Below are positions 1,170 to 6,302 of a stretch of DNA of 64,000 bases, piece by piece. Below the pieces are notes generated by a model, which did not search any database, was not told the DNA's origin, and saw nothing but the letters and a program-made list of their open reading frames with translations. This stretch comes from Flaccisagitta enflata (taxonomy: Eukaryota). The translations under genes and the position numbers were made by a program. Each line of letters begins with the position of its first letter. The stretch's first letter is position 1. The DNA is taken from the NCBI GenBank assembly GCA_965153355.1, contig OZ231126.1:40734001-40798000 (forward strand). The letters are read 5' to 3'.

Positions 1170-4100
1170 ATGATCCAATTCCGCAGAAAAATATCTCAAA
1201 ATGACGACGAAATTTTTACGCCAGGTAATTACAGGTGAATTAGGTCATGTACATGCATTTCTATAAGAGGCTTTTGTCCACAGTAGGTCGGTATGTCGGT
1301 TGGTAGGGTTGAATTCTTAAAGTCAGTTTTAGGTGGGGTTGGTTGGCTTGGTCAGGTTGGTCGGGTCGGCTGGGTTTAGGGGTTGGTTTTATGGTTTGTT
1401 TGTTAAGGTCAATGCTTGTCGTGTTGGGTTTTAAGATAGTTTAGGTTTGGTCGTTGCAATGTATTTAGGCTCAATACTTTAATAAACCTTTTCCAATACT
1501 GTCCCTGCCCATCTTTTTGCATTTCTATTACAATAATTTCTATTTTCTGTTTTCTTTTTTTTCTCAAAATCTCAAGGAACGACTACAAGACCTCCAAGTC
1601 ACAGATAAATTTCTGTGCCCAAGTAATTTTTCATCCCGCTCCAATCAATAACAAGAAGCAAATCGCAGTCCGCGATCTACTCAGTGAGTATGCAACAAGG
1701 CCATGTATATAGCAGCTTCATATATCAACAAACAAATAGAGGCATGAATCCTTAAATACCATTTTATGTACCTGTGGACCAAATTTTGAATTATACACAA
1801 TTATATCCATTTCATTGTTCTTTTTTTTTTTGTTTGTCTGTATCAGAGAGATGGACCAAAAAGGACAGTGGCAAAGAAGATTTGGTTATGCGTTTGGCGA
1901 ACAAATCGACTTTGATCGAGAACGGCGACCTTTTGCAAGTCGCGATAGCGCTGCAGCATCCCAAGGTTGTTACAAATTTAAGCACCTGTCCCATCCCCAT
2001 CCCCAACCACATCCCAACCCCATCCACATTCCACCCATCCCTCATTCCTTATGTTTAATATTTCATCAATTATTCCTTTTTACTTATATAGGATTATCTC
2101 AGTACCATCTGCGCCCTTACCGAAAAGCGCCTCGTCCACTGGTTCGATGAGAAGCCCGATAAACAGGGGCTCATGAAAGGGGAGGAGGGACGAACGGAGC
2201 CCAAATCTCGTCCCTGTCCGCCCCTGCCAGACTTCTTACGAAAAACCAAGACGTGGCAGCCAGCCACTTCAAAGGTAGTGAAATTTGTTGGTCTGTCAAT
2301 TTGTTGGTCTGTTTGTCCATTAATTTGTTTTAGTTGTTATATTGCCCACCCGTCCGCAACCCTATTGTGACCCCATATCATTTATCACGCTCATTTGTTC
2401 TAATTATCATTTATAATAGGAGTGGCCGACTTGCGCCTCCATCTTGAGTAAGGAGGGGGGTCAGGCGACTTCAAAAGCCAAGAAAAAGGCGACGACGTTA
2501 GTACTTAACGACGGATCCGTCCACTCTGCGCCCAAAAGCCTCGAATTTGAAGGTTAATTGAATCATTATGTGTCTCCCTGGTTGTGTCTCTCTGTTTCTC
2601 TCTCTCTCTCTCTCTCTCTCTCTCTCTCTCTCTCTCTCTCTCTCTCGTGTAACTTCTCTCATTTTTACTATATCCAGAATCCGTCGTGGCCTACTATCTC
2701 CAAGACAACCAGAAGAGGAGACACTGCGACTCATTGCTGGTGCAGGAATTGATAAAACATTACAAACCAACGTCATTTGAAGACTTCATGGCCAAGTTAG
2801 TATAGATTGTTATTGTCATTCTATTTAGTCGCGTGCTACGCGACTCTACAACCCGCTTTGTCGGTCCGTCGGTCCGTCCGTCCGTCCGTGGGTCCGTTGG
2901 TTTTTGGGGTCTTTGACCTTATTGCTCCTGCCCAAATAATGGAGTGGCCTCAAATATGGCCCCTGCCCACCCGCACGCGACTTCGGTAGCCGTGTATCTG
3001 ACCTTGTTTTTTTTTTTTTTTTTATTCGCGTGCACGCGACTTTAAATTTTTATAATTAATTCTGAGTCCATCTGTAAATATCCCACACGCCGTATAGGTG
3101 TCGGCCTTGTTGTCTACTGTGTCATTTTTGCAATTTTTCAATTTGTCATCATTTTGATATCACTTTGTCATTACTTTGTCATTATTGTAGGCTACCACTA
3201 CTGGATCGTTGGCGTCTCTTTACCATTCTCGGCAATGGATGGGACTCTTTTACCCAATCTTTGCTAGGTAAGAACATCAGTTATGGTGATATTTCAGCTA
3301 TGACTGCCCATTAAACAGACATTTAGCTAGGTTTCATGTATTACATCTTAAAAAATATTTGTTTCCATTTGTAGACATGCATCTGGAGAATCAACAACGG
3401 GAGAACAACAAGTACCCCTTTTTTCTCAGGATTTGGAACGAGTGAGTGATAACTGTTAAATGTGTAATGACTCTTTATAAAGCTGTGTCCGTCCATCAGT
3501 CCGTTGATCCGTTGGTCCATGAACGTGAATACAAATGTGGAAAATGGGCGTTTTTGGAGTTTTTTATTTGTATCCATGTGTTTGTGTTATGCATACAGCT
3601 GCCCCTGCCCACCCGTCCGCAACAATATTTTCATCTCACGTTATTTGTTCCCGCTTATTACTCAGTGAACGTTATCGCAAGATCATTGAGGACAACAACG
3701 CCTTTAAGAGAGAGCACAAAGAAGATTACCTCGCCAAAGTTCGGGAAGGCGAAACGACGGAGGCGTACGTCCCCGTAGAAACACCATTTGACAAATCTGT
3801 CAGGTAATACTCTCCATACTTTTCATTGCCAGAGTTATTTGCAACAGAGTTATTTGCAACAGAGTTATTTCTCTTTGTCAACATTTCTCTAAACTCTCTC
3901 TCTCTCTCTCTCTCTCTCTCTCTCTCTCTCTCTCTCTCTCTCTCTCTCTTGAATATATCATATTTCTAAATCAATTCTCTTTTCCTTTTTACATCATTTC
4001 TAGATGGCTCAACTACTTCATCACCCAGCATGACATGGAAGCGCCCGAGTTCTTGCAATTCCTACACGGATGGTGTCGTTTCAACATGGCCAACGCCAAT

Positions 4101-6302
4101 TCGGTCCTTGAAAAGCCTAACACTCTTTATATTCACGGTCCAAGTAACAGCGGGTATGTTTATTTCTTATTCATTTAATTTATTCATTTGACCTACCTAC
4201 AAACCTACTGACAGAATTACTTCATCAGAAATCAGTATTATTGTCCTTTTGTGTCAAAGATTTCCAAATGTGCATTTTTTTTTCTCTCTTTTTTTTTCGT
4301 TATACAGAAAATCCTTTTTGACCAAGATGATCACCGAGGTACAGGGGTGTATAAAATTAGACACTTAACCCCCCCCCCTCCCTTTATAGATAAAGGTGGG
4401 GTATAAGTTTGATATTTCATGTTGCCTTTTTCATATTGCCCTCTTTATATTGCCCCTTTTATAGAAATAAAACAAATTACTGGGGATTAGGGGGGGGGGG
4501 TGTGGGTAAACACCGCGGGGGGGGGGGGTGGTAGCTTAATTTTATACACCCCTGTAGGTGCATGCAACGTGTTTACTAAATAACGAATCATCACAATTCG
4601 CGTTTGAACGCTTGACCGAGGTGCACAATATCGTATGGGCAGAGGAACTCAGGTGAGGGTGTCAATTAAATGGCTATGAAATGTAAACTTTCTAACACTA
4701 TGTTCAAAAATTTTGTATTGCCATAGTTCACATCCTTACCTGAGTTCCTCGGCCCAACCCCATTTATCATTCCAGATTGAATTTTCTCAACCTCTCTCAG
4801 CTGAAACAGCTCATGGAGGGTAAGAGGTTTTCCAAAGCTTTTATTTCATAGTACAATACTTTAGATTTTTTACCCATTTACAATAACATGTAAATCACAT
4901 ACTCATATTTACACCTGGAATATTCAAAATTATTATCTCAATTGTGATCTTTTTCCCCACACTCCTTATTTCCCCTCTACCCTCCCCCATTCCATTCTCT
5001 CTCTCTCTCTCTCTCTCTCTCTCTCTCTCTCTCTCTCTCTCTCTCTCTCTCTCTCTCTCTCTCTCTCTCTCTCTCTCTCTCTCTCTCTCTCTCTCTCTCT
5101 CTCTCTCTCTCTCTCTCTCTCTCTCTCTCTCTCTCTCTCTCTCTCTCTCTCTCTCTCTCTCTCTCAATTCAAGGTTCCACCTTCGCGATAAACAAAAAAG
5201 GACGGGCCTCATCCAAGAGGAGCGCCCCCTTCAAGACCATCGGCAAGATTTGAGATTCATTGGGCCAATTATGAGAAATGTGTTTACTCTCTGTGACATT
5301 AGTTATACATCTCCATATAGGAATTTTGTAATTACTCCCTAGCTACAACATGGCCGGATACACTGCTACCACATTCGCGTGTGGATGGGCAGGAGCAGTG
5401 CTGGAGAAGGTCACCAGGGCATTTGGGCAGGAGCCACATTCTAAAAAATCTCAAAAACGCCAATAAAATAAAACGGGGACCAACCAACCAACCAACCAAC
5501 CAACCAACCACCCGACCAACGGACCTACATAGCGGGGTGTAGAGTCGCGTAGCGCGCAACTGAAAATTCCTACATAGAGATGTATAACTAATGTCACAGA
5601 GAGTAAACATATTTCTTATAATTGGCCCGGTGATTCTCAAATCTTGCCAATAGTCACCTCAAATCACTCCCTCGAGGAGCATGCGCCCAATTCTCGCGAA
5701 CTTCGCGCGTTGGAGTGTCGGTGCTACCAACTCAACCTCAGGTAAAGGCATACATGAAAATGAAATAGTTTAGACTAAAATGAAAAAAATGGCCTGGTCT
5801 GGCCTGGGTTTAAACTAAAATGAGAGAAATGGCTTGGTCTGGCCTGGTTTTTTATAACTATTGCCCCCGTTTTACTCTATATATATATTATTCTAATATA
5901 CGCCACTCTACAATCCGTTTTGTCAGTCGGTTGGTCCGTCTATCCATCCGTCCATCCTTCCGCCCACTGGCTTGTTATTCCATCGGTCCGCCGGTCCGTC
6001 GGTCTGTCTGTCCATCTCTTTAATACATTTTGATGCATCTAATCCTCTCTTTTCCTCTGCTACACACTAGGGCACCAATCAAGAAGATGACCAAGGCGCA
6101 ATGGCAAGCGAAGTCGCATCAAGAGAAACTCGACATCAAGGCGAAATACGAATTCTCCCCAGAGGAGGAATTTCGCTGGATTCCACCAGCTCCTCAGGTC
6201 GTGGGACCAGCCACTTTGCTTGGATTGTGGTTGCGCTACTTTCCCCTCCATGCGAACCCAGACCCCATCATGCCGGACCAGCCATTGCAACACAGGACGT
6301 AA
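1170..6302 (+). CDS. Spliced superfamily-3 helicase, parvovirus NS1-like, ~570 aa
   Basis: Phase-compatible exons 1577-1683, 1847-1965, 2092-2274, 2420-2552, 2678-2795, 3191-3267, 3375-3441, 3666-3803, 4004-4153, 4308-4338, 4558-4652, 4776-4819, 5174-5242, 5654-5741, 6071-6302 join without a stop; first exon 1170-1234 tentative. Motifs: Walker A NTLYIHGPSNSGKS, FAFERL, Walker B IVWAEE, B' LKQLMEG, motif C TIVTSN, arginine finger ALECR. Introns GT-AG except 5243-5653 (GC-AG). Confidence 0.9.
2824..3008 (+). mobile_element. Helentron/DINE-1-like short element, family B (example copy, inside a helicase intron)
   Basis: TTTAGTCGCGTGCTACGCGACT palindromic start, (CCGT/CGGT)n tract, end GCCCCTGCCCACCCGCACGCGAC...GCCGTGTATC..CCTTGTT. 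Related copies near 5347-5562, 11755-11958, 23507-23652, 28944-29150, 33609-33815, 44910-45116, 48735-48940. Confidence 0.7.
4340..4556. mobile_element. MITE filling helicase intron 4339-4557
   Basis: Perfect 20-bp inverted repeat TACAGGGGTGTATAAAATTA (4340-4359 / 4537-4556), i.e. TA-flanked CAGGGGTG termini of Tc1/mariner style. Confidence 0.8.
5235..5655. repeat. ~93-bp inverted repeat bracketing the GC-AG intron 5243-5653
   Basis: 5235-5327 is the reverse complement of 5563-5655 with scattered mismatches; a DINE-like repeat (~5347-5562) lies between the arms. Confidence 0.9.

Follow-up and report, generated by a model that had tools for sequence, protein, structure and literature searches.

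The window analysed here, 64,000 nt of the Flaccisagitta enflata genome (contig OZ231126.1 of assembly GCA_965153355.1, forward-strand positions 40,734,001 to 40,798,000), carries close to its left end a gene for a superfamily 3 (SF3) helicase, as judged by its motifs, that is split into 16 exons and stands tail to tail with a broken gene for a protein-primed family-B DNA polymerase (pPolB), the two stop codons lying 398 nt apart. The gene model and the helicase motifs are truly present in the sequence, far beyond chance. This is probably an intact, selected, virus-derived helicase gene. With slightly less than even confidence, we favour the reading that a host-style split SF3 helicase gene has been kept open by selection as the partner of the adjacent pPolB, within an integrated bidnavirus-like or polinton-like element.

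Exon borders were set by script after direct reading of the region. Fifteen exons on the forward strand (1577-6302) were found to share a single frame, open through to the TAA at 6300-6302. Ahead of them lie two options for the first exon, each in frame with exon 2, giving a product of 581 or 571 residues. The parts of the gene are the following:

919..1013, forward strand: candidate first exon a, with ATG at 919 and donor GTAAAG (the stronger donor); joins exon 2 in frame
1170..1234, forward strand: candidate first exon b, with ATG at 1170 and donor GTGAAT at 1235; joins exon 2 in frame
1577..1683, forward strand: exon 2
1847..1965, forward strand: exon 3
2092..2274, forward strand: exon 4
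2420..2552, forward strand: exon 5
2678..2795, forward strand: exon 6
3191..3267, forward strand: exon 7
3375..3441, forward strand: exon 8
3666..3803, forward strand: exon 9
4004..4153, forward strand: exon 10, in which the helicase core begins, with the first part of Walker A
4308..4338, forward strand: exon 11, 31 nt, in which Walker A ends
4558..4652, forward strand: exon 12, with Walker B
4776..4819, forward strand: exon 13, in which motif B' begins
5174..5242, forward strand: exon 14, with the remainder of B', as far as an insertion
5654..5741, forward strand: exon 15, with motif C
6071..6302, forward strand: exon 16, with a conserved 76-residue tail and the stop TAA at 6300-6302
6671..6676, forward strand: AATAAA, which may be the poly(A) signal of the helicase gene (sequence match)

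The original prediction had claimed that 15 exons join free of stops, and this was borne out: the coding frame of the joined exons 2-16 contained the final stop only, the other two frames contained 17 and 19, and shuffling the exon letters for 2000 rounds gave a mean of 25.1 stops with a minimum of 12. Its start at 1170 proved to be an ATG, and the exon that begins there continues in frame into exon 2, as does the rival first exon at 919-1013. In the chain from exon 2 to exon 16, which has 14 introns, the donor is GT in 13 and GC in one, and the acceptor AG is preceded by a pyrimidine-rich tract in every case. The G+C content was 49.8% in the exons versus 39.6% in the introns. None of the 16 exons has a copy elsewhere in the window, but 701 of the 3075 intron bases do. 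The lengths of introns 11 to 14 are all divisible by three. Runs of (CT) were seen in three helicase introns (5, 9 and 13), and a 170-nt (TC) run occupies 4996-5165.

SF3 helicases share a Walker A motif of the form GxxxxGK[ST], a Walker B motif made of a hydrophobic run that ends in two acidic residues, then motif B' and finally motif C, which ends in N, all within about 100 residues. By these definitions, the spliced model has the full SF3 set. In its 581-residue form, Walker A was located at residues 391-398, Walker B at 431-436, B' at 447-462 and C at 476-479, in the correct order and inside 90 residues, which is a compact SF3 layout. All the motifs are therefore kept, as had been claimed, and the intron said to interrupt Walker A does so, at the 4153/4308 junction. 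On the strength of these motifs, the predicted protein belongs to superfamily 3. It would consist of about 345 N-terminal residues that resemble no family in the searches made, a compact ATPase core that holds all four motifs, and the conserved 76-residue tail. The earlier failure to recognise an N-terminal HUH motif agrees with our count, which found no His-hydrophobic-His in residues 1-345 of the model and none in the alternative first exon; that is, the N-terminal HUH nuclease motif of parvovirus NS1/Rep proteins is lacking.

Family searches with separate exons were largely silent. No relevant Pfam family was returned for 13 of the 16 exons queried one by one, nothing relevant was found among PDB sequences for exon 10 or exon 12 as single queries, and a read-through of exons 11-15 with X at the stops (P0101) gave no relevant family in Pfam or PDB. 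The sole match of that read-through was a low-complexity PT repeat, which stems from intron letters. Two single-exon matches, to UreE_N in Pfam (E 0.072) and to 16 residues of a PDB sequence (E 1.3), were taken as chance, and a 19-residue match of exon 10 in a viral contig (L001), the open reading frames (ORFs) of which belong to no family, was judged spurious. In the Atlas, where a score of at least 0.9 counts and a lower one is a lead, the two clusters nearest to exon 10 were mostly Cossaviricota, at 0.80-0.81 (a weak lead); in one of them, Parvo_NS1 was found on 30% and PPV_E1_C on 17% of the members.

Two of the 15 introns (11 and 14) have inverted repeats at their ends, lying exactly at the splice sites; a search of intron ends found none in the other 13. 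The elements concerned are:

4340..4556, strand not assigned: small transposon whose 20-nt inverted ends match perfectly; the element and a single G to either side of it are exactly intron 11 (4339-4557)
5239..5651, strand not assigned: insertion with 89-nt inverted ends (81/89 alike), inside the motif-C exon; it encloses a copy of the commonest short repeat of the window

If a two-base duplication was made at the insertion in intron 11, splicing would remove the element together with one duplicate and so restore the message; left unspliced, this intron leads to a stop after nine codons. Intron 14 (5243-5653) corresponds to the 411-nt insertion, and its removal is possible only as a GC-AG intron. 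Unspliced, it presents an in-frame stop after nine bases inside the insertion. With the AG just beyond the insertion as acceptor, intron 14 equals the insertion plus a two-base duplication in length, and both frame and residues are kept. The insertion at 5239-5651 was also present in an independent DNA run (X1), in which no contig skips it, and it is therefore not an assembly artefact. The predicted intactness of the gene rests on one non-canonical splice, that of intron 14 from a GC donor. That both insertions in the coding sequence would be removable without trace is what is expected if only tolerable insertions survive in a gene under selection.

A dispersed short repeat, present in the window as eight or more copies or fragments, was observed in intron 6 and in the intron-14 insertion; copies lie at 5351-5720, 2824-3008, 11759-11849, 26147-26222, 28944-29151, 33608-33815 and 44909-45119. 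Its word depth in run X1 was about 2000-3000 versus about 34 in the flanks, which marks it as a very abundant family in the genome.

Introners are transposons that create introns on insertion, and are described in the available parts of two papers as common in aquatic eukaryotes and as present also inside polinton-like proviruses of dinoflagellates (PMC9860276; PMC12166617). Coincidence of the element ends with the intron ends, at unchanged message length, was found here for introns 11 and 14, that is, 2 of 15. The likeness extends to several points: the borders of both introns are exactly those of inverted-repeat elements, part of the splice sites comes from a short duplication or from flanking bases, and removal, by splicing that is predicted, keeps the message length. 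Unlike introners, neither element has a second copy in the window, and the 13 other introns lack such ends. By analogy, intron-making transposons would provide a known mechanism for at least two introns of the helicase gene.

The last exon is represented in protein databases at 79% identity (71 residues, P0100) and at 95% identity (226 residues, P0102). The two clusters hold ten proteins, all of them open to the same end and free of indels. Over the 71 residues compared (76 for the five proteins differing at 4), the number of differences from the window was 1 in two proteins, 4 in five, and 8, 14 and 15 in one each, and the changes were mostly conservative. The lack of any indel despite 15 differences in 71 residues suggests constraint, judged here from the indels and not from a dN/dS (nonsynonymous to synonymous rate ratio) value. 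In the 95% variant, genomic sequence was translated straight through intron 15 and the stop; its exon part is 72/76 alike and its intron-derived part aligns poorly with the window. In its group (P0102; five proteins, variants of window 5742-6350) the helicase stop is read as W, into the 3' flank; the gene calling apparently used a code with TGA as Trp, and the stop there differs from the TAA of the window. No longer database protein was found among those sharing words with exon 10, and the last exon had no match in metagenome contigs.

The neighbour of the helicase gene is the following:

6704..10592, reverse strand: protein-primed family-B DNA polymerase, a full-length but broken copy of about 1300 residues

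The minus-strand ORFs at 6701-10518 are fragments of this one polymerase gene. A read-through piece of it had 52 relatives at E<=0.001 among 1.84 billion representatives, the best being a 1299-residue protein with 63% identity. The copy aligns with this protein over residues 1-1299, with six frame changes and two in-frame stops, so the neighbouring polymerase is real and disrupted in the window, as had been predicted; the end-to-end match leaves no room for introns. Two relatives examined in full are uninterrupted ORFs of about 1300 residues. The relatives sit on metagenome contigs of 4 to 17 kb, and the family had no match in viral, JGI metagenome or prokaryote genome contigs. None of the 3889 nt of the copy is repeated elsewhere in the window.

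No polymerase family in Pfam, PF03175 included, matched any of seven relatives, and a profile of the family compared with PDB sequences found the C2H2 finger only. The nearest named Atlas clusters, at scores of 0.94-0.95, carry DNA_pol_B_2 (PF03175) on 96-100% of their members. When the predicted structure of the relative P0005 (predicted local distance difference test, pLDDT, 87.9) was searched, the top three matches were phi29 polymerase (E 2.4e-4 to 7.1e-4; template modelling (TM) score 0.48-0.54 on the target), and all the rows listed were family-B polymerases. The invariant columns of motifs A, B and C (D, K..N..G and N.D) were visible in the alignments. The copy thus has the motifs and, by the model of this relative, the phi29-type fold of a pPolB. 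It also contains a C2H2 finger and, between motifs A and B, a Cys/His block that we take to recall the Vsr nuclease; the Vsr domain was undetected by Pfam in seven of seven relatives.

A contig from DNA run X1 spans 5985-10700 with 113 letter differences and 52 gaps relative to the window. Among the rows listed, it matches the window to about 7024, and the differences lie only beyond the helicase gene. A second haplotype of the polymerase region (window 7025-10700) therefore exists. Several of the X1 differences over the polymerase copy are shared by an RNA-library run.

SF3 helicases form a hexameric ring that unwinds DNA 3'-5' with ATP. By its family, the protein encoded here would act as such a six-subunit ring, driven by ATP in the 3'-5' direction. 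It could be made only after removal of 15 introns, two of them transposon insertions, which the spliceosome would take out so as to leave frame and residues as before. Selection would have preserved the open frame through a long stay in the genome, and the helicase may serve, or until recently may have served, as the partner of the adjacent protein-primed polymerase, the pair being the putative replication module of an integrated bidnavirus-like or polinton-like element. Host domestication of the helicase is possible, and the gene is a well-formed candidate for it: the frame is open, ten of ten last-exon variants are open, and expression was not seen. The original idea of a helicase under selection amid decay was supported in part, by the open frame, by the removable insertions and by these variants; the RNA comparison, which covered the last three exons, showed no transcripts and no spliced joints.

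A number of observations weigh against the reading of a selected helicase paired with its neighbour in one element. A bidnavirus-like element combines an SF3 helicase (S3H) that lacks a nuclease domain and a pPolB, both found here, with a jelly-roll capsid and terminal inverted repeats, neither of which was found. The disrupted capsid gene of the original prediction could not be traced, as no capsid-like ORF was recognised and none of the 11 ORFs outside the polymerase copy at 10.4-15.4 kb belonged to a Pfam capsid family. A search for inverted repeats linking 1-1600 with 10400-20000 gave nothing except the common dispersed repeat; the window begins 918 nt before the gene, and the left flank was barely covered. 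Integrase, protease and packaging ATPase were not found in the window. The label 'parvovirus NS1-like' (Pfam PF01057), which is plausible, draws on the motifs and one weak Atlas lead. Among the longer proteins sharing exact words with exon 10 or 16 there was no unsplit helicase, which is weak evidence. Moreover, 15 introns in the 1.7-kb helicase coding sequence versus none in the 3.9-kb polymerase fits poorly with one shared history. The lopsided distribution of repeats (701 of 3075 intron bases versus none of 3889 polymerase bases) fits either a polymerase that was under constraint until recently or one inserted separately and later, beside an older host gene.

The same holds for the state of the two genes. 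The sole donor ahead of the stop in intron 14 is a GC, in a good GC-donor context, and if splicing does not use it the product terminates before motif C. In the 95% variant, 4 residues away from the window, the 15 codons past the stop are 14/15 alike, as conserved as the exon, so coding constraint is not demonstrated at this distance. At three of the six frame changes of the polymerase, contigs from X1 and from a second run are one letter longer or shorter than the window there or nearby, and the stretch in which the window has two stops is open in a relative with 76% identity. Part of the polymerase damage would thus be private to the window haplotype or to the assembly. The contrast drawn earlier between an intact helicase and a decayed remainder therefore stands in so far as the polymerase is broken in the window, and is weaker in so far as the damage is partly private.

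The comparison with RNA and DNA reads covered 5166-10700, and hence the last three exons of the helicase gene, in one poly(A) run, two metatranscriptomes and one DNA run. Sequence of this stretch occurs in DNA runs labelled marine metagenome and in runs of 'organism A', the poly(A) run being one of the latter. In the poly(A) run (X24), none of 12,162,974 sampled reads (about 6% of the run) fell on this stretch, a result that counts as 'no test'. The two metatranscriptomes gave patchy pieces at a depth of 1-6 over the polymerase copy and intron 15, one piece spanning the border between the insertion and exon 15 unspliced, and over the same stretch they showed no depth on exon 16 and no spliced joints. 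These pieces look like stray DNA or background transcription. Three RNA runs contained 0.16-0.21 of the sampled words of the stretch; this share was set aside as evidence of expression, as the two runs that were mapped gave scattered low-depth pieces, intron and polymerase included, with no joints. The check by RNA reads over the junctions that had been proposed with the original prediction thus returned no spliced reads, in what is a weak test of the last three exons.

Part of this evidence would suit a different history, in which the helicase is a host-domesticated gene of older date and the polymerase copy a later, unrelated mobile-element insertion, a possibility that we regard as rather unlikely. 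The 15 introns of the helicase against none in the polymerase, two full relatives of which are unbroken at about 1300 residues, are readily accommodated by it, and so are the unequal repeats, with the polymerase either later or constrained until recently, and the last-exon variants, which form a graded, orthologue-like series. It would, however, be an unlikely coincidence for two mobile-element replication genes to end up tail to tail with 398 nt between them; the closest diverged relatives of the polymerase (P0003, 76%) and of the last helicase exon (P0100, 79%) are at much the same distance, and the expression expected of a domesticated gene was not seen. We also consider it unlikely that the locus is in early decay, a once-functional gene having been disabled by one or both of the coding-sequence insertions, with loss of expression. 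The splicing of both insertions at their borders restores frame and residues exactly, which is unexpected for random disabling hits, and the 581 codons contain no other stop or frameshift. Such decay would account for the stop nine bases into the insertion at 5243, for the stop nine codons into a read-through of intron 11, for an intron 14 donor that can only be GC and for the two metatranscriptomes without joints or exon 16 depth and the zero X24 reads, and the insertion is confirmed by the independent DNA run. The RNA test is weak, however, X24 being 'no test' and the metatranscriptomes lying at the depth of stray DNA.

It is highly improbable that the exon chain was over-fitted through free choice of GT and AG sites in non-coding DNA. 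The exons are short (31-232 nt) and were picked to hold the frame open, no single exon matches a family, and RNA support is absent, all of which such an origin would explain. It would leave without explanation four SF3 motifs that are ordered and correctly spaced, a 10-point step in G+C that coincides with the predicted borders, the 17 and 19 stops in the other frames, and a last exon that is conserved in ten independent database proteins, its border being conserved where the intron is read through.

The reading of a selected helicase gene paired with the adjacent pPolB has its closest parallels among viruses and virus-like elements. Bidnaviridae (Bombyx mori bidensovirus) combine a stand-alone S3H of parvovirus origin with a Polinton-derived pPolB, according to the available part of PMC4061559, and mavirus pairs a pPolB with a stand-alone S3H, according to that of PMC11161782. 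As in Bidnaviridae, an SF3 helicase without a rolling-circle nuclease domain here adjoins a protein-primed family-B polymerase. Unlike in Bidnaviridae, the two genes reside in the DNA of a cellular, marine organism, and the helicase gene is interrupted by 15 introns and encodes about 345 additional residues at the N-terminus. The polymerase belongs to a type that carries a C2H2 finger together with a Cys/His block, and neither jelly-roll capsid nor terminal repeats were found; the parvovirus ancestry of the helicase is putative. Elements of the Polinton/mavirus type likewise carry a pPolB and a separate S3H, as the accessible portions of two sources state (PMC11161782; bioRxiv 10.64898/2026.10.13.758929), a pairing seen here as well, and they differ from this locus by the integrase, capsid, protease and packaging ATPase that were not found in the window. 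A pPolB2 class with a VSR endonuclease domain is described from Polintons of a marine nematode and of molluscs (PMC10748475), in a text whose available part does not contain the word 'helicase' and whose supplementary tables may bear on the pairing. The polymerase here shares with this class a Cys/His block of Vsr-like appearance between motifs A and B, and differs by the lack of a Vsr domain detectable by Pfam in the seven relatives tested.

For co-option in animals, the available parts of two reports provide enRep-Myo9 of guinea pigs, a co-opted Rep/NS1 gene (bioRxiv 10.1101/572735), and parvovirus-related sequences in invertebrates (PMC5013282), the latter without the word 'intron' in that part. 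Like endogenous parvoviral elements, the gene described here is a putatively virus-derived SF3 helicase whose frame stays open in a host genome. It differs from these cases, as far as those parts describe them, by its 16 exons, the lack of a nuclease motif and the adjacent pPolB. Our literature searches found no case of a 16-exon SF3 helicase without a nuclease motif beside a pPolB.

Some features elsewhere in the window were also noted. Two near-identical pairs of ORFs (138 and 174 residues) lie on the minus strand at 29005-29998 and 33669-34662, 4664 nt apart, which suggests that 1 kb or more was recently duplicated in tandem. In a 193-residue ORF at 14163-14744 (minus strand), the first half is acidic and rich in Ser and Asp and the tail is basic. 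This ORF matches no Pfam family at E<=1; by eye, its tail resembles a winged-helix (linker-histone-like) domain, and it could belong to a host gene as one of its exons. Trinucleotide runs of the AAC/GTT type (250-450 nt) occur at 26.9-27.3, 41.2-41.7, 43.6-44.1 and 53.0-53.3 kb, and the window is rich in (CT), (CA) and GAAA-type arrays.

To our knowledge, SF3 helicases occur only in viruses, plasmids and other mobile elements. Every intron of the present gene was therefore probably gained after entry into a cellular genome. If this is true, a viral helicase with 15 introns, two of them visibly made by transposons that leave no trace in the message, would be a clear and dated case of intron gain, and the gene would be a candidate case of a viral replication protein retained over a long time. 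That it lies beside a protein-primed polymerase is also relevant to the assembly of replication modules of the bidnavirus-like and polinton-like kinds. The bidnavirus lineage is proposed to have arisen when a Cossaviricota-type S3H was combined with a Polinton-type pPolB. It is conceivable, though improbable in our estimation, that helicase and polymerase together form the replication module of a marine relative of this lineage that has become endogenous, in which introners, two of them recognisable, made the helicase a 16-exon gene of host style. Should that be so, the locus would record both the origin of a virus type and the stepwise gain of introns in a gene that entered the genome intronless.

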